Positions 13,511-19,991 of a DNA stretch of 46,878 bases are shown here, piece after piece. The stretch comes from a virus (lineage: Duplodnaviria > Heunggongvirae > Uroviricota > Caudoviricetes), in the IMG/VR virus record IMGVR_UViG_2529292735_000017. One strand, written 5' to 3'. Each line of letters starts with the position of its first letter. Positions within the stretch are counted from its first letter, which is position 1. The position numbers and the translations under genes were made by a program. Below the pieces are notes generated by a model. That model saw only the letters and a program-made list of their open reading frames with translations. It was not told the DNA's origin and made no database searches.

Positions 13511-14332
13511 ATGAAACTGGAAGATTTACCGAAATACTACTCCCCAAAATCCCCTGGCCTGACCGATGCATCGGCCTCAACGTCAAAAGATGCGCTGAGT
13601 ATCACTGATGTGATGGCCGCGCAGGGCATGACACAGAATCGGGCTGAGATGGTTTTTTCTGCGTTCCTGGGGAAAATGGGCATCAGTATGAATGACAGGG
13701 CGCGGGCAACAGAATTACTGGCAGATTATGCACTCAGTCGGTGCGATCGTGTGGCGGCGTTGAGAAAACTTCCGGCAGAAATAAAACCGGTAGTGATGCG
13801 CATTATGGCTTCGTACGCTTTTGAGGATTATGCCCGCAGCGCAGCGAGTAAAAAGCAGTGCCCTTGTTGCTATGGGGAAAAATTTATTGAAAGCATAGTT
13901 TTTACAAACAAGGTCCAGTATCCGGATGGTAAGCCGCCGGTATGGGCAAAGTGTACGAAAGGTGTGTATCCGTCTTACTGGGAAGAATGGAAAAAAGTCA
14001 GGGAGGTGGTAAAAGTTGCCTGTCCGGAGTGTGGCGGAAAGGGTGAGGTTTCCACCGCCTGTAAGGATTGCCGTGGGCGTGGTGTCGCCATTCATCGTGA
14101 AGAGTCGGTAAAACGTGGTATGCCTGTTGTCAGAGACTGCCAGCGTTGTGGTGGTCGTGGCTATGAAAGACTACCATCAACGGAGGCATTTAATGCTATA
14201 TGCGAGGTGACAAACCAGATAACACGCGCGTCATGGGAAAAAACAGTTAAGAAATTCTATGATGCGCTGGTGACCCGGTTTGATATTGAAGAAGCATGGG
14301 CTGAGCGGCAGTTAAAAAAGGTAACTAGGTAA
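13511..14332 (+). CDS. Late-gene antitermination protein Q
   Basis: 273 aa with CxxC…CxxC zinc-binding clusters; immediately upstream of a pR'-like promoter and terminator. Confidence 0.8.
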   Translation: MKLEDLPKYYSPKSPGLTDASASTSKDALSITDVMAAQGMTQNRAEMVFSAFLGKMGISMNDRARATELLADYALSRCDRVAALRKLPAEIKPVVMRIMASYAFEDYARSAASKKQCPCCYGEKFIESIVFTNKVQYPDGKPPVWAKCTKGVYPSYWEEWKKVREVVKVACPECGGKGEVSTACKDCRGRGVAIHREESVKRGMPVVRDCQRCGGRGYERLPSTEAFNAICEVTNQITRASWEKTVKKFYDALVTRFDIEEAWAERQLKKVTR

Positions 14333-14365: not shown

Positions 14366-14414
14366 CGTCATAATGATGGGCTTTTTATGCCTGACGTTAG
14401 AAGAGTTTCTACAA

Positions 14415-14436
14415 CCCGCCGCCGAGCGGGTTTTTT
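14415..14436 (+). terminator. Putative tR' intrinsic terminator
   Basis: CCCGC-cgccga-GCGGG hairpin followed by TTTTTT, about 50 nt downstream of the promoter. Confidence 0.5.
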
Positions 14437-14476
14437 ATTGCGGAATTAATTACGGACCGTTATTATTCTGCTCCCG

Positions 14477-14552
14477 GCCCTTTAGCTCAGTGGTGAGAGC
14501 GAGCGACTCATAATCGCCAGGTCGCTGGTTCAAATCCAGCAAGGGCCACCAT
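14477..14552 (+). tRNA. tRNA, anticodon CAT (ileX/ileZ-like tRNA-Ile2; Met not excluded by anticodon alone)
   Basis: 76 nt with 7-bp acceptor stem GGCCCTT/AAGGGCC, anticodon loop cTCATAa, GGTTCAAATCC T-arm, 3' CCA; closely resembles remembered E. coli ileX. Confidence 0.85.
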
Positions 14553-14651: not shown

Positions 14652-14728
14652 GCGTTGTTAGCTCAGCCGGACAGAGCAATTGCCTTCTAAGCAATCGGTC
14701 ACTGGTTCGAATCCAGTACAGCGCGCCA
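14652..14728 (+). tRNA. tRNA-Arg (anticodon TCT)
   Basis: 77 nt; acceptor stem GCGTTGT/ACAGCGC, anticodon loop CTTCTAA, GGTTCGAATCC T-arm, 3' CCA. Confidence 0.85.
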
Positions 14729-14865
14729 TATTCATTCTTCCAGATTCCTTCCGGCAGAGCCTTATACTGGAATATACCTGGCTCAGGATATTGTTGAAAA
14801 CATAATATGTTTGTCAAAAATAAAAGTTCTGTTAAGTATTGATTGAGTGTTTGTTATACGGTCTA

Positions 14866-15192
14866 ATGGTTTTTTCAGCATTAAATATTTATCATTCATA
14901 TGGTGTGGGTAGAGTGAATATTGATGAGGCGTCGGGGTGTTTCATCCTTAGGCAGCGCATTGATATAGTCAATGCAGCACGAGCAAAGGCCTTCAGCCGT
15001 TTGACAGTTTTGTTCTGTGCTCCTGATCGTCTTTCGGGAAGAGACGTTATTATTCTGAATAGTGATGCTATACAGAGGGTTTGCGATGAGTTCATGGTTG
15101 CTAATTCAGAATTATTTGCTCTTGTTCAGGAGTACAACAGAATAGCCAGGACCTGTGGTATGGATGAACTTCGGATTACTCATCTGGGGTAG
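14866..15192 (+). CDS. Hypothetical protein (late-region cargo)
   Basis: ORF with first ATG at 14866 and no convincing RBS; between the tRNAs and the lipoprotein genes. Confidence 0.35.
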   Translation: MVFSALNIYHSYGVGRVNIDEASGCFILRQRIDIVNAARAKAFSRLTVLFCAPDRLSGRDVIILNSDAIQRVCDEFMVANSELFALVQEYNRIARTCGMDELRITHLG

Positions 15193-15725
15193 ATACATAT
15201 CTGGATTATCACCTGTTACGGTAAAAAGTGATTGCTTACTGTTTTTGTGAATGGCATTGCAGCAGCCGGATAATGTCAGTGCTGGCTGACGGTGTGCTGG
15301 TGGCGGGTGTGGTGGTTGTTGCTTTCCCGTTGCTGAAAAAGAAAACGCCAGACTGTTAGCCGGGTATCAGTTAGCGGGAGAAATTTTTAAATACTTCACA
15401 ATTCAGGCGGTTGACTGTTCTCTGGTTTGCGGGGAGTTTGTTAAAAGAAACTGGCATGGTGAATCCCCCTGTGCGGAGGGGCAATCAGCGAGTAGGTATA
15501 TGGGATAATCGCGGATTCAGGTGCTGGTACTGAATTCACCGGGAGGCACCCGGCACCATGCACTTCAATAGATTCTCTCCACATTATGGATATTCTTTCA
15601 GAATATCCCACGCAGACTTTGTGTAAATGTTAACAAATGTGCGTTTTATTTGATCTGATTCGCTGTTTGAGCGTCCAAAACAACGGTATATATAATCCTT
15701 TACTATATGACATATGTGAGGAAAA

Positions 15726-16154
15726 ATGGGTTTTCGTAGCGCATCAATTCTTACGTTGATTATTAGTGGGATTATTATCGGGTGCACTGATGCTGTATCG
15801 ACAAATTATCATGACCGTACATCATATTACTCCGATAAAGCAATAGAGACACAGTATGTGAGTTCATCTGAACGTACTTCTGATGTTAGTGAGGATATCC
15901 GTCTGTATGCCCATCAAATCAAGAGCGCCATCGAAAAACAGTTCGGGGATGCGAGTAAGTATTCAGGAAAAGAGTGTACACTGAGAATGCATATGGCCCC
16001 GAATGGCCTTCTACTGGAGGTTAAAAGAGAAAGTGGAGACCTCGATTTATGTCGTGAAGCGATGAATGCGATAAAGAATGCTGATATACCTGCCCCCCCT
16101 TCGCCGGAAGTATATAAAGTATTTCAAAATGGGGTGCTGGATTTTAAACCCTGA
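15726..16154 (+). CDS. Lipoprotein with TolA C-terminal (domain III)-like domain
   Basis: Signal peptide with lipobox IIGC; C-terminal …YAHQIKSAIEKQFGDASKYSGKECTLRMHMAPNGLLLEVKRESGDLDLCREAMNAIKNADIPAPPSPEVYKVFQNGVLDFKP closely parallels the remembered E. coli TolA C-terminus. Confidence 0.8.
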   Translation: MGFRSASILTLIISGIIIGCTDAVSTNYHDRTSYYSDKAIETQYVSSSERTSDVSEDIRLYAHQIKSAIEKQFGDASKYSGKECTLRMHMAPNGLLLEVKRESGDLDLCREAMNAIKNADIPAPPSPEVYKVFQNGVLDFKP

Positions 16155-16304
16155 TATTTATTGTTTTGTAATAAACGGTTTCGGCTTAGGTTTGTTCTGA
16201 CACAACTACGGCACTGAGCTAAATTTAGCGGATAGTCAGCTCTGAGCCAGTGGCGGACGTAACAACTACTATTGCTGAGATTTTAATGGATTGAGGAGCA
16301 AGAA

Positions 16305-16700
16305 GTGGGATTAAAGAAAATCGTTATGTTGACTTTTTGGGTCGGTTTTGTTGCGGGATGCACACCTTTACACCCTTCAGATTGCCACAAAACTACTGCT
16401 ACAGGTAGTTGCAGTTCAGGACGCTGGGATGATCAGGATGAATGGGGGGCGCAAGCGCGGGGAATCAGAGCTGCAATTAATGCCAAACTTGATGAGCCGC
16501 ATAACTGGAAAGGGAAAAAATGCAGGTTGCATATGGAATTCTCTCAGGATGGCACGGCGTTAAAAATATCTACCAGTAACGGTGATAAAGCCTATTGCGA
16601 AGCGATAAAGTCCGCAGCTCATAAAGCCAAATTTCCGGCCTTCAACAATCCGGAAGTCTACAGAGATTTTCAGAAATCTGGCTTTGACATGCGAGGTTAG
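16305..16700 (+). CDS. Paralogous lipoprotein with TolA C-terminal-like domain
   Basis: GTG start with GAGGAG RBS; lipobox VAGC; shares the C…C…PEVY…FQ…G(F/L)D(F/M) pattern with the upstream paralogue. Confidence 0.75.
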   Translation: MGLKKIVMLTFWVGFVAGCTPLHPSDCHKTTATGSCSSGRWDDQDEWGAQARGIRAAINAKLDEPHNWKGKKCRLHMEFSQDGTALKISTSNGDKAYCEAIKSAAHKAKFPAFNNPEVYRDFQKSGFDMRG

Positions 16701-17007
16701 CTCTTCAATTACTATATCTCATTCATAGCAAACTGACAGATTTGATGATGTTCTATATACGAAACCTGTGATGTCAAGTCTGAGCTAATACAAATAAACA
16801 TAATATCAGAGAAATACATTTTATTAGCTCGCTACGGCGAGCTTTTTATATTGCATCGTCTCCAGCATATATATCAATTAAGGCTCTGATTGATGTGTCT
16901 GGAAGCCTACACATAATAGACTGGCCCCCTGAATCTCCAGACAACCAATATCACTTAAATAAGTGATAGTCTTAATACTAGTTTTTAGACTAGTCATTGG
17001 AGAGCAG

Positions 17008-17337
17008 ATGATTGATGTCTTAGGACCGGAGAAACGCAGACGGCGTACTACACAGGAAAAGATCGCTATTGTTCAGCAGAGTTTTGAACCGGGAATGACG
17101 GTCTCCCTTGTTGCCCGGCAACACGGTGTGGCAGCCAGCCAGTTATTTCTCTGGCGCAAGCAATACCAGGAGGGAAGTCTTACTGCTGTGGCCGCAGGAG
17201 AGCAGGTCGTTCCTGCCTCTGAACTTGCTGCTGCCATGAAGCAGATTAAGAACTCCAGCGCCTGCTCGGCAAAAAAACGATGGAAAATGAACTCCTTAAA
17301 GAAGCCGTTGAATACGGGCGTGCAAAAAAGTGGATAG
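17008..17337 (+). CDS. insC: IS2 transposase OrfA (InsC), C-terminus apparently frame-altered
   Basis: [41 protein letters not shown]… matches InsC up to …AAMKQIK, then diverges from my recollection, consistent with a 1-nt deletion. Confidence 0.7.
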
Positions 17338-18235
17338 CGCACGCGCCCTTATTGCCCGGGGATGGGGAGTAAGCTTAGTCAGCCGTTGTCTCCGGGTGTC
17401 GCGTGCGCAGTTGCACGTAATTCTCAGACGAACCGATGACTGGAAAGATGGTCGCCGCAGCCGTCACTCAGATGATACGGATGTGCTTCTCCGTATACAC
17501 CATGTTATCGGAGAGCTGCCCACGTATGGTTATCGTCGGGTATGGGCGCTGCTTCGCAGACAGGCCGAACTTGATGGTATGCCTGCGATCAATGCCAAAC
17601 GTGTTTACCGGATCATGCGCCAGAATGCGCTGTTGCTTGAGCGAAAAACCGCTGTACCGCCATCGAAACGGGCACATACTGGCAAAGTGGCCGTGAAAGA
17701 AAGCAATCAACGATGGTGCTCTGACGGGTTCGAGTTCCGCTGTGATAACGGAGAAAAACTGCGAGTCACGTTCGCGCTGGACTGCTGTGACCGTGAGGCA
17801 CTGCACTGGGCAGTCACTACGGGCGGCTTCGACAGTGAAACAGTACAGGACGTAATGCTGGGAGCGGTGGAACGCCGCTTCGGCAACGAGCTTCCGGCGT
17901 CTCCAGTAGAGTGGCTGACGGATAATGGTTCATGCTACCGGGCTAATGAAACACGGCAGTTTGCCCGGATGTTGGGGCTTGAACCGAAGAACACGGCGGT
18001 GCGGAGTCCGGAGAGTAACGGCATAGCAGAGAGCTTCGTGAAAACGATAAAGCGTGACTACATCAGTATCATGCCTAAACCAGACGGGTTAACGGCAGCA
18101 AAGAACCTTGCAGAGGCGTTCGAGCATTATAACGAATGGCATCCGCATAGTGCACTGGGTTATCGCTCGCCACGGGAATATCTGCGGCAGCAGGCCAGTA
18201 ATGGGTTAAGTGATAACAGGTGTCTGGAAATATAG
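17330..18235 (+). CDS. insD: IS2 transposase OrfB (InsD; DDE catalytic domain)
   Basis: 301-aa [26 protein letters not shown]… typical IS3-family OrfB. Confidence 0.85.
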
Positions 18236-18286
18236 GGGCAAATCCACATAATAACTATGCCATCCGTTCCGTGCGGAGGTGAGGCT

Positions 18287-18502
18287 ATGAAATCCATGGA
18301 CAAAATTTCAACAGGCATTGCCTACGGCACCTCCGCAGGCAGTGCTGGCTACTGGTTTTTACAGCTGCTCGATAAAGTCACGCCCTCACAGTGGGCAGCA
18401 ATAGGTGTGCTGGGTAGCCTGGTATTTGGCCTGCTGACGTACCTGACAAATCTTTATTTCAAGATTAAAGAAGACAGGCGTAAGGCTGCGAGAGGAGAGT
18501 AA
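18287..18502 (+). CDS. S: Class II holin (phage 21 S-like pinholin) with dual start
   Basis: [71 protein letters not shown]; Met1-Lys-Ser-Met4 dual-start motif; two transmembrane segments. Confidence 0.85.
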
Positions 18503-18570
18503 TCCAATGACTCAATACTATGAACTGGTTGTGAAAGGAGGTAAGCGTCAACGGAGCACCGTATTGACGC

Positions 18571-18930
18571 TTATTTATTGGTGAGTACTACGTTCCATGG
18601 CAGGAGTTCGTCAACACGGTTGGAGGGCCATTCCGGCAGTACGCTCAGAATATGGCGCAGATACGCTTCCGGATCGATACCGTTCAGTCGGCAGGTGCCG
18701 ATCAGCCCGTACAGCAGTGCTCCACGCTCGCCGCCGTGATCGCTACCGAAGAACACGTAATTTTTCTTTCCGAGACAGACTGCACGAAGCGCTCTTTCCG
18801 CTGTGTTATTGTCCACCTCCGCCAGACCGTCATCACTGTAATAACAGAGGGCGTCCCACTGATTCAGTACATAGCTGAACGCTTCGCCCAGTCTGGATTT
18901 TTTCGACAGCGTGCCATTCTTCTCCACCAT
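18571..18930 (-). pseudogene. IS66 TnpC C-terminal fragment
   Basis: …DNNTAERALRAVCLGKKNYVFFGSDHGGERGALLYGLIGTCRLNGIDPEAYLRHIL… conserved IS66 transposase C-terminus; N-terminal three quarters absent. Confidence 0.75.
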
Positions 18931-18947
18931 CCATTCATGCAGCGACG

Positions 18948-19193
18948 TCAGTAACGCTTTGCTTCGCTGCTGCCTGGCTGCAAGACGCTCTGACTCTGGT
19001 AATCTCCGTATTTCATTCTCGATGGCGTACAGTTCACTTCTCCCCGTCGGCCACGGAAGATAAACAGGTGACCGGAGAAGGGGTTATCATCCAGCACATG
19101 CTGTATCTGCTCCCCCAGACCGTTGAAGGATTTACGCATATCAGTAACGCCGGCAACGAGCCAGATACGGGTACCTGATGGGAGTGAAATCAT
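18948..19193 (-). pseudogene. IS66 orf2 (TnpB) truncated
   Basis: MISLPSGTRIWLVAGVTDMRKSFNGLGEQIQHVLDDNPFSGHLFIFRGRRG then unrelated sequence, marking the deletion junction. Confidence 0.7.
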
Positions 19194-19627
19194 CGTCCCC
19201 TCCCGGTCAGCTCACGGATCAACACCGTGAGCAGCTCTGGTGAAGGATTTTCCAGCATCATTTTACCGTAATGGAATTCCACATGGCAGGAAGCTGCACA
19301 AGCAACTGATAATGCCTCCGGAGCAGGAGCATCTGTAGCACAGCGCGGGGGGTCGATAAGTTCCACTGGAACCAGAGTCGGAGAGGCCGGAAAAGATTGT
19401 GATACTGTAGGGCCTACAATAGTTGGAGGCATTCTACGAGAAATACGTCCTTCTCTTTGCCAGAGGCGTAGCCATTTAAAAATCAGGTTGTTATCAACGC
19501 CATGTTCCCGGGCCAGTTGTGCAACATTGGCATTTGGTTTCGAAGCCAGTTCAACCATATGAAGTTTAAATTCATTAGAAAATATCCGGCGGGTTCCGGA
19601 GCGCCAGTCTGTAGGTTTATCCATCAA
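19190..19627 (-). CDS. IS66-family orf1 (TnpA accessory protein)
   Basis: 145-aa ORF with HTH-like N-terminus, first gene of the IS66 operon. Confidence 0.75.
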   Translation of the reverse strand: MMDKPTDWRSGTRRIFSNEFKLHMVELASKPNANVAQLAREHGVDNNLIFKWLRLWQREGRISRRMPPTIVGPTVSQSFPASPTLVPVELIDPPRCATDAPAPEALSVACAASCHVEFHYGKMMLENPSPELLTVLIRELTGRGR

Positions 19628-19991
19628 TAGAACTCCGTCTAATTTAGAAGGAGCTCTAATTTAGTCTGCAAGGAGCAGGTGTTACAGACGGCATTGGCTT
19701 TACGCTTACGAAAGGAGTCCGTAATTTTGAGAATAAAGTTACGGTAACTGTAGCCTTACAGGACAAAGAACGCTTTGACGGTGAAATTTTTGGCCTGGAT
19801 GTCGCCATGGACCGTGTTGAAGGAGCTGCGCTGGAGTTTTATGAGGCAGCAGCCAGAATGAGCGTCCGGCAAGTCTTCCTGGAAGTAGCAGAAAAATTGT
19901 CAGAAAAAGTTGAGTCTTATCTGCAGCATCAGTACTCCTTTAAGATTGAAAATCCTGCCAATAAGCACGAGCGTCCTCATCATAAATATCT

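Follow-up and report, generated by a model that had tools for sequence, protein, structure and literature searches.

Many colicins and filamentous phages enter the cell by seizing the tip domain of TolA (domain III, here TolA-III), and the preceding parts of the protein, domain I (a membrane anchor) and domain II (a long helix), couple TolA to the TolQR motor. TolA-III and the C-terminal domain of TonB serve as periplasmic hubs for group A and group B colicins, respectively, and for many phages. We analysed a 46,878-nucleotide stretch of DNA (IMG/VR virus record IMGVR_UViG_2529292735_000017; hereafter the window), a lambdoid prophage in which two adjacent open reading frames (ORFs), ORF-A and ORF-B, encode small lipoprotein precursors, each ending in a TolA-III domain. 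The two share their fold, Pfam family and disulfide with the TolA-III of the Tol-Pal system (E. coli residues ~325-421; PDB 1S62, 3QDP, 1TOL and 2X9A), but they lack any coupling to TolQR or the proton-motive force, carry a predicted lipid anchor and reside on mobile elements.

Ligands reach TolA-III from two edges. The β3 strand (~414-421) is the β-strand-addition site for the N terminus of TolB, for colicin N and for the N1 domain of g3p (PMC4339652, PMC7391070), and the substitutions D418P or K420P abolish binding of TolB, colicin N and g3p (PMC4339652). Colicin A docks at the opposite edge, on the β2 face Leu375-Pro380, with cation-π contacts to K368, K379 and K396 (PMC3365938). TolA binds TolB with a dissociation constant of ~40 µM and colicin N with one of ~1 µM (PMC4339652).

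Isolated pieces of this system have been placed in the periplasm by design, and in such constructs free TolA-III or its ligand competes with native TolA contacts, as is likewise proposed here. Periplasmic TolAIII reportedly renders cells colicin-tolerant and leaky (work attributed to Levengood-Freyermuth, 1993, and to Wan & Baneyx, 1998), and periplasmic TonB fragments are said to block TonB-dependent uptake (Howard et al., 2001). These constructs are artificial, soluble and overproduced, whereas ORF-A and ORF-B are natural, diverged, predicted to be lipid-anchored, under purifying selection and apparently equipped with signals of their own. Overproduction of periplasmic TolAIII perturbs Tol function and is used in biotechnology for periplasmic protein leakage (PMC6195910), and periplasmic g3p-N1 sequesters TolA, which makes cells resistant to colicin A and lowers fd uptake by 4 logs (PMC10424213).

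Small lipoproteins borne by mobile elements, as ORF-A and ORF-B are, include Cor (of phi80, N15 and mEp phages), Llp (of T5) and TraT (of F). Cor and Llp plug FhuA and TraT masks OmpA, so that a second invader is stopped. All three thus block a receptor, whereas ORF-A and ORF-B would imitate a host hub. Such lipoproteins act at the inner face of the outer membrane, as is reported for Llp and its target FhuA (bioRxiv 10.64898/2026.03.26.714494). Nearest in spirit are the FimU-like minor pilins of Pseudomonas prophages, prophage-borne copies of an envelope part that incoming phages need; the diverged copy of a host component reportedly protects the lysogen (PMC12952977). There the system is the type IV pilus and the copy is built in, whereas ORF-A and ORF-B lack the parts that join TolQR and would act as detached decoys.

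TolA domain III on a predicted lipid anchor

ORF-A and ORF-B lie on the same strand, with the following features.

15726-16154, plus strand: ORF-A, 142-residue lipoprotein precursor with a TolA-III domain, ATG start
15726-15785, plus strand: ORF-A signal peptide and lipobox IIGC with Cys20, Thr at +2 and Asp at +3 (PROSITE-type rule)
15786-15875, plus strand: ORF-A linker, residues 21-50, predicted local distance difference test score (pLDDT) below 50, predicted disordered, fast-evolving
15876-16151, plus strand: ORF-A TolA-III domain, residues 51-142, pLDDT ~90, C terminus VLDFKP
16293-16298, plus strand: GAGGAG Shine-Dalgarno sequence of ORF-B, read from the sequence and kept across B loci
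16305-16700, plus strand: ORF-B, 131-residue lipoprotein precursor with a divergent TolA-III domain, GTG start
16305-16361, plus strand: ORF-B signal peptide and lipobox VAGC with Cys19 and Thr at +2 (PROSITE-type rule)
16362-16448, plus strand: ORF-B mature N terminus, residues 20-48, TPLHPSDCHKTTATGSCSSGRWDDQDEWG, with two extra cysteines
16449-16697, plus strand: ORF-B TolA-III domain, residues 49-131 (Pfam E value 1.3e-14; 1.1 Å from 3qdp)

The identity of the C-terminal halves, which a preliminary description of this DNA had likened to TolA-III, is borne out by profiles, by sequence searches of the PDB and by superposition of models. Pfam PF06519 (TolA C-terminal; gathering threshold 25 bits) matches ORF-A over residues 49-140 with 82.6 bits (E value 2.4e-23) and ORF-B over residues 44-125 with 54.6 bits (E value 1.3e-14). 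Alignment to TolA-III itself gives a significant resemblance in both cases: ORF-A matches E. coli TolA 334-421 with an E value of 5e-28, sharing the terminal LDFKP, and ORF-B matches E. coli TolA-III with an E value of 5e-9. Identity to E. coli TolA over the TolA-III columns is 58% for ORF-A (TolA 333-421) and 30% for ORF-B. AlphaFold2 models both domains with pLDDT ~90 (residues 51-142 of ORF-A and 42-131 of ORF-B) and the regions N-terminal to them with low confidence. Both models follow the TolA-III order helix-strand-strand-helix-helix-strand, contain the three-stranded sheet and retain the equivalents of the disulfide pair Cys363/Cys388. In Foldseek, the ORF-A model superposes on chain B of 2x9a, the TolA-III of the IF1 g3p complex, with a root-mean-square deviation of 0.6 Å (template modelling score 0.96), and the ORF-B model on 3qdp with 1.1 Å (0.92).

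The resemblance stops at this domain. Against the TolA equivalog models NF007065 and TIGR02794, ORF-A covers only positions 293-386 of 387 and ORF-B positions 304-382; both lack the transmembrane domain I and the helical domain II. The NF007065 scores, 107.8 for ORF-A and 53.7 for ORF-B, fall below the cut-off of 213, but ORF-A passes that of TIGR02794 (75.6 against 59.45) solely by virtue of the C-terminal 98 positions, and the misleading name 'TolA' may have arisen in this way. Nor do the genes belong to a tolQRA-tolB-pal-cpoB operon, being found instead in prophages, on plasmids or at scattered chromosomal sites. ORF-A and ORF-B are therefore TolA-III domains on a lipid anchor, not TolA.

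The lipoprotein signal peptides noticed earlier, with lipoboxes IIGC and VAGC, satisfy the PROSITE-type rule PS51257, which calls for a charged n-region, a hydrophobic h-region and a lipobox [LVI..][..][AGS]C with its cysteine at position 15-35. Each protein has a Lys or Arg within its first seven residues: ORF-A has Arg4, followed by the h-region LTLIISGIIIG (TLIISGIIIGC at the lipobox), and ORF-B has Lys4 and Lys5, with LTFWVGFVAGC at the lipobox. The residue at +2 governs sorting by Lol avoidance, and a lipoprotein without Asp at that position goes to the outer membrane. As both proteins have Thr at +2, sorting to the outer membrane is predicted for both.

Current annotation obscures both genes. 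PGAP/RefSeq treats ORF-A as a pseudogene of tolA, with the remark 'incomplete; partial in the middle of a contig; missing N-terminus', yet the gene is intact and the label looks like an annotation error. PGAP begins ORF-B at an internal ATG (16326), by which the charged n-region is lost. The homologues on IncI1 plasmids and on pO157 have an ATG at the exact codon of the GTG start given here, and the sequence indicates that the start codon of ORF-B is miscalled. The apparent PGAP errors on A and B recur over hundreds of genomes (extracted locus L002: 12395-12655 and 12827-13201). Existing database labels include 'TolA C-terminal domain-containing protein' and 'tolA family protein', and ORF-A falls in PHROG 5772, labelled 'unknown function'; the domain resemblance itself is thus not new.

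Binding faces compared with TolA

The two proteins differ in how much of the TolA ligand surface they keep. Their β3 strands align with those of E. coli TolA and of two Klebsiella plasmid homologues as follows.

E. coli TolA: NAPLDFKP, reference
ORF-A: NGVLDFKP, 6/8 identical
Klebsiella ColRNAI plasmid homologue: NAPLDFRP, 7/8 identical
Klebsiella IncF plasmid homologue: NAALDFRL, 5/8 identical
ORF-B: KSGFDMRG, 1/8 identical

The equivalent of D418 is invariant in all four proteins compared with TolA, and the K420 position holds Lys or Arg (Arg in ORF-B). The strand is among the best-kept segments of ORF-A and is the best-kept one in the plasmid homologues. On the colicin A face, ORF-A keeps LLEVKR and has His, Lys and Lys at the three lysine positions, so that two of the three lysines are retained. 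ORF-B has ALKIST on this face and Glu, Ser and His at the lysine positions, all three lysines being lost. Judged by these residues, ORF-A would mimic both TolA-III faces closely, since it keeps both, and ORF-B, given its losses, could retain at most the backbone-driven β3 site.

Two old lineages under purifying selection

The preliminary description took the genes for a paralogous tandem pair whose divergence suggested diversifying selection, and this part is not supported. The domains of ORF-A and ORF-B are 28% identical to each other, below the 58% between ORF-A and host TolA-III, so that A is nearer to TolA-III than to B. Each lineage also occurs alone: in other lambdoid prophages, which have nothing B-like, A-type variants (91% and 66% identical) invariably occupy the interval from Q to the holin gene, and plasmids and chromosomes carry B-type genes unaccompanied by A. 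Among three A alleles, pairwise Nei-Gojobori ratios of nonsynonymous to synonymous substitution (dN/dS) range from 0.09 to 0.34 across the domain and from 0.4 to 0.8 across the signal peptide and linker, which is the pattern of purifying selection with a relaxed linker. With dN/dS below 1 in all regions of ORF-A, diversifying selection at the gene level was rejected, and the low A-B identity together with the separate occurrences likewise removes a recent tandem duplication. On this sequence evidence, therefore, two old lineages have come to stand side by side, and the pair is not an in situ duplication under positive selection. A recent capture of ORF-A from a sequenced tolA was also considered and set aside, as no full-length TolA representative exceeds roughly 55% identity; the capture is thus old or its donor unsampled.

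ORF-B is 84-93% identical across genera in the identity matrix, and its constraint is unevenly distributed. Averaged over alignment columns, the entropy in 150 distinct family members is 0.29 bits over residues 19-48 (CTPLHPSDCHKTTATGSCSSGRWDDQDEWG, which includes the lipidated Cys19) and 0.52 bits over the TolA-III domain, which is thus less conserved than the N terminus. This segment, with its Cys-loop and Trp-acidic-Trp motif, is nearly unchanged even in Klebsiella variants of 47-53% identity. AlphaFold2 gives this mature N-terminal segment low confidence and no fold. Such strong conservation, which the variable linker of ORF-A does not show, indicates that the segment does more than serve as a passive tether. 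A TolB box (DG[ST]GWSSE, with an essential Asp and Trp in its core) was considered for the segment and rejected: SCSSGRWDDQDEWG bears only a loose likeness to GASDGSGWSSENNPW of ColE9, and the essential Asp is replaced by Cys.

Distribution and family

Among 5426 complete E. coli genomes, ORF-A is present in 888 (950 of its 952 places are chromosomal), ORF-B in 1269 (825 chromosomal and 525 plasmid places) and the intact pair in 775. The genes are mostly at least 99% identical among carriers and occur in 14-23% of these genomes. The selection pattern, the identity of B across genera and this high frequency together indicate that the genes are functional rather than decaying. In 50,697 phage records, a single carrier of either gene was found, Escherichia phage mEp460_ev081.

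ORF-B is not confined to phages. At 78-89% identity, close homologues are found in Citrobacter, Enterobacter, Serratia, Klebsiella, Raoultella, Leclercia, Kluyvera, Pantoea, Rouxiella and others, where the chromosomal copies are single genes at sites that are non-syntenic between genera. The possibility that B is a conserved core gene was rejected because its flanking genes share no synteny between genera. A tblastn search of PLSDB found B-like genes on 1297 plasmids, 604 of them with at least 80% query coverage. On IncI1/B/O plasmids the B homologue is a regular cargo gene directly 3' of the relaxase genes nikA/nikB (pHUSEC41-1; extracted locus L042, 7965-8396), and the EDL933 plasmid pO157 has it in the psiB-psiA-hok region (extracted locus L045, 5815-6246). 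These homologues are ~88% identical to ORF-B, and 92% over TolA-III, and are annotated by domain only. In Serratia marcescens, a B-type gene stands beside genes with GmrSD_N and HEPN domains in a defence-island-like setting (extracted loci L006 and L007, 6001-8736).

The wider family consists largely of short exported proteins. A HMMER search with ORF-A against 1.84 billion cluster representatives gave 333 matches at E<=0.001. Among the best 150 of these, 84 are no longer than 175 residues, and a lipobox is present in 43 of the 69 proteins of 100-175 residues; several other short matches start with an apparent ordinary secretion signal. More distant TolA-III lipoprotein genes are found on Klebsiella IncFIB/FII plasmids, adjoining a gene for a thioredoxin-fold protein. 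The order there is a gene for an exported thioredoxin-fold (DsbA/TraF-like) protein and then the TolA-III lipoprotein gene (extracted locus L046, 5229-6258); this neighbour may be relevant to forming the TolA-III disulfide.

Two independent arrangements join the family to the other import hub. Klebsiella ColRNAI plasmids of 10-12 kb carry a TolA-III lipoprotein gene together with genes for a cloacin/colicin-E3-like bacteriocin and the matching immunity protein, and for a lysis protein. In these plasmids the TolA-III gene overlaps by 4 nucleotides the start of a gene for a 121-residue exported protein that matches Pfam TonB_C (E value 9e-11). The second pairing has the reverse order, with an exported 125-residue TonB_C protein encoded just 5' of a divergent B-type lipoprotein, and occurs on chromosomes of Klebsiella grimontii and K. 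michiganensis (oxytoca group) and on one Klebsiella plasmid.

Extracted locus L044, 9206-9939: TolA-III lipoprotein gene next to a TonB_C gene
Extracted locus L037, 5574-6399: TolA-III lipoprotein gene next to a TonB_C gene
Extracted loci L039 and L040, 5565-6393: TolA-III lipoprotein gene next to a TonB_C gene

The recurrent combination of TolA-III with TonB_C may be a two-hub decoy module.

A discrete cassette in the late region

Both genes lie in a discrete, moron-like insert. Homology to other lambdoid and Stx (Shiga toxin-converting) phages ends at ~15562 and restarts at ~16915, just 5' of the holin gene; ORF-A and ORF-B therefore form an insert of ~1.35 kb. The flanks are common to many lambdoid and Stx phages, and the insert is found among the 50,697 phage records in mEp460_ev081 only, so that it is polymorphic in presence and absence among close phages, as a moron is. 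In a study of uropathogenic E. coli isolates, a variable prophage region of 1,355 bp is listed as 'TolA protein, hypothetical protein' (PMC6854850). The search for direct or inverted repeats at the cassette flanks gave just short matches, probably due to chance.

15563-16915, plus strand: cassette (moron) with both genes, ~1.35 kb, by homology boundaries
15667-15696, plus strand: candidate σ70-like promoter TTGAGC-18-TATAAT, 10/12 consensus, best-scoring site in the scan
16826-16851, plus strand: intrinsic-terminator-like hairpin and T-run 3' of ORF-B, AGCTCGCTACGGCGAGCT followed by TTTTTATATT

The promoter candidate lies 30 nucleotides 5' of ORF-A and is also present in the A cassette of 91% identity, whereas the variant of 66% lacks it. 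The terminator scan found no terminator-like site between ORF-A and ORF-B, so the two genes likely form an operon. With promoter-like and terminator-like sites of its own, identified as consensus matches, the cassette looks like a moron.

The window is 99.97% identical to mEp460_ev081 (LR597641) over the shared parts. Its gene order runs from Q through a terminator-like hairpin, two tRNA genes, a DUF3927 ORF, ORF-A and ORF-B to the holin gene and the remaining lysis genes.

13511-14332, plus strand: late antiterminator Q, by antitermination protein annotation in identical records and Pfam Antiterm in related loci
14413-14432, plus strand: terminator-like hairpin just 3' of Q, candidate tR', by terminator scan
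14476-14551, plus strand: tRNA gene with CAU anticodon, called Met by ARAGORN and Ile by RefSeq, probably lysidine-modified
14652-14728, plus strand: tRNA gene, Arg-UCU (ARAGORN/RefSeq)
15228-15359: DUF3927 ORF
16923-18244, strand not assigned: IS2-like insertion of 1.3 kb between ORF-B and the holin gene, seen as an alignment gap against LR597641 and not in mEp460_ev081
18257-18502, plus strand: holin, EssD-type lysis protein S, by ORF list, annotation and flank homology

The position between the Q/tRNA region and the holin gene, which corresponds to that of stx in Stx phages, is as the preliminary description had it, with the addition that in the window the IS2-like element intervenes between ORF-B and the holin gene. 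In Stx phages, stx occupies this same slot, 3' of Q, tR' and the tRNA genes and 5' of the holin gene S; the cargo here is an envelope protein instead of a toxin and apparently has its own promoter and terminator. In another prophage the 66%-identical A variant lies directly 5' of nanS-p/DUF1378/DUF826/holin, the genes that follow stx in Stx phages.

Two insertion sequence (IS) elements separate this prophage copy from mEp460_ev081. Within the first, the ORFs at 16963-17337 and 17330-18235 are presumably InsC/InsD-type transposase genes of IS2, by our reading of their translations. The second is IS66-family sequence at 18541-19709, after the holin gene and within a ydfR-like gene. The lysis region of the present copy is thus probably disabled by IS elements, and the TolA-III cassette is intact.

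Two further features lie between the tRNA genes and the cassette. A 117-residue ORF at 14839-15192 (plus strand), between the tRNA genes and the DUF3927 gene, has no Pfam match. A full-length Rfam match to the small RNA STnc100 at 15425-15615 (plus strand) scores 114 bits against a gathering score of 47; it adjoins the cassette upstream, extending ~50 nucleotides beyond the left homology boundary at ~15562.

A proposed decoy mechanism and its alternatives

The best-supported mechanism, which we favour tentatively, is that ORF-A and ORF-B are non-energised decoys for Tol-dependent colicins and filamentous phages. The lipoproteins would be tethered to the outer membrane on its inner side, at the point where g3p-N1 and the translocation domains of colicins come through first. 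The translocation domains of group A colicins and bacteriocins, and g3p-N1, would dock by β-strand addition onto the decoy first; caught there, they would never reach energised TolQRA, and the lysogen or plasmid host would be tolerant to these colicins and phages. ORF-A would be the close mimic, by virtue of its LDFKP β3 strand and two of the three colicin A lysines, and ORF-B an older, widely travelled lineage offering a β3-type site only, in addition to its very conserved Cys-loop segment. Given ~40 µM for TolA-TolB and ~1 µM for colicin N, invaders would be captured preferentially, and a moderate level of decoy could soak them up without crippling Tol-Pal.

On conjugative plasmids, the beneficiary would be the pilus-bearing cell that faces TolA-dependent filamentous phages. 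The pili of IncI1, pO157-type and Klebsiella IncF elements are receptors for such phages; If1, for example, uses I pili, and the structure 2x9a is that of the IF1 g3p-TolA complex. Carriage on conjugative plasmids and the two pairings with TonB_C, one of them on a bacteriocin plasmid, strengthen the decoy or tolerance idea. The integrity of the cassette next to a lysis region hit by IS elements also counts in its favour, as do the promoter-like and terminator-like sites and the presence/absence polymorphism, which together make up the architecture of an accessory gene that benefits the host.

Several observations weigh against a decoy role. B-type single genes sit on the chromosomes of many genera with no obvious mobile context, and a purely anti-invader role is therefore not required. 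None of the three lysines that contact colicin A survives in ORF-B, which shares one of eight β3 residues with TolA, and its most conserved part lies outside the TolA domain, which hints at a different or additional activity. The promoter-like and terminator-like sites are consensus matches only, and a decoy that also bound the TolB N terminus could be costly. A search of the full-text literature found no functional study of any family member; what it returned concerned host tolA, matched author names by chance or consisted of plain annotation lists. PADLOC gave no match to either protein at E<=1, so that neither this search nor PHROG 5772, a family with no assigned function, ties ORF-A or ORF-B by sequence to Cor, Llp and TraT or to other known defence or exclusion families.

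A second reading gives the same fold a different use. Tethered TolA-III may bind the TolB N terminus (or CpoB), compete with TolA and loosen the outer membrane, and the resulting vesiculation or leakiness could aid phage release, bacteriocin release, or pilus or conjugation functions. The position of the cassette in the late operon directly 5' of the lysis genes, the Klebsiella plasmid homologue near bacteriocin and lysis genes and the conservation of the TolB-binding β3 strand would all fit such sabotage of Tol-Pal. So would the full leaky tol phenotype that accompanies loss of TolB binding in TolA D418P/K420P (PMC4339652) and the leakage of cells that overproduce periplasmic TolAIII (PMC6195910). 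We nevertheless consider it unlikely. With its own promoter-like and terminator-like sites, the cassette is not simply a late gene, and it has stayed whole although IS elements disrupt the lysis region of the same prophage. Lambdoid phages already possess a holin, an endolysin and, to judge by the annotated rzpQ gene, a spanin-type function for lysis of the outer membrane. Moreover, the weak TolA-TolB affinity means that high expression would be needed, and chronic envelope damage would be costly where B is a stable chromosomal single gene, as in many genera. It is also improbable, on present evidence, that the proteins are TolA-fold adaptors with another envelope partner, serving envelope physiology, conjugation or tailed-phage exclusion, though B lends itself to this idea more than A. 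The TolA-III/TonB-C fold is a general β-strand-addition module, and short exported TolA-III proteins are numerous, as the lengths and lipoboxes of the best 150 matches show. In ORF-B, residues 19-48 are more conserved than the TolA domain, identity to TolA-III is down to 30% and the colicin A-site lysines are gone; its genes occupy non-syntenic chromosomal sites and, on IncI1, the position right after a relaxase gene. Against this, ORF-A is a very close copy of TolA-III with the exact C-terminal strand, which is hard to explain unless TolA ligands are targeted, the repeated pairing with the TonB C-terminal domain points to the import hubs of colicins and phages, and none of the present data suggests an alternative partner.

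The RefSeq pseudogene call implies yet another origin, in which the genes are decayed fragments of tolA left by illegitimate recombination. The label 'missing N-terminus' and a match confined to the final ~95 positions of the TolA equivalog models would suit such debris, but we regard this origin as very improbable. Both ORFs are intact and have Shine-Dalgarno sequences, with a new lipoprotein signal peptide grafted in front of the domain, and the disulfide cysteines and the fold are conserved. Purifying selection, combined with intact export signals, effectively refutes decay, and the genes are too frequent and too uniform in E. coli (14-23% of complete genomes, mostly at least 99% identity), and too widely spread in other genera, to be remnants.

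Implications

A broader extension of the decoy reading, which we put forward with more reserve as possible but rather doubtful, is that stand-alone exported TolA-III domains, with or without a soluble TonB C-terminal domain, are a widespread, unrecognised class of decoys on the prophages, conjugative plasmids and bacteriocin plasmids of Enterobacterales. Their carriers would be broadly tolerant to bacteriocins that depend on Tol or TonB and to filamentous phages specific for pili, and the present prophage would have stacked two such decoys, ORF-A and ORF-B, that differ in ligand range. If the decoy reading is correct, exclusion or tolerance encoded by mobile elements would take a new form here, a natural case of defence by mimicry of a receptor domain in which a host hub is copied rather than blocked, and the TonB C-terminal pairing suggests that the same trick is played against a second import pathway.

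Whichever function applies, annotation gains, because ORF-A is intact, the start of ORF-B is miscalled, and the labels 'TolA' or 'tolA pseudogene' now hide these genes. If the proteins sabotage Tol-Pal, they would be natural, transferable regulators of the stability and vesiculation of the outer membrane. Colicins and other bacteriocins shape competition among gut Enterobacterales and are in development as narrow-spectrum antibacterials, and filamentous phages are both standard tools and natural enemies of plasmid-bearing cells. The candidate decoys are carried by 14-23% of complete E. coli genomes and by hundreds of IncI1, pO157-type and Klebsiella plasmids. If they act as decoys, the sensitivity of E. 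coli to colicins and phages would depend on accessory genes that current annotation conceals.

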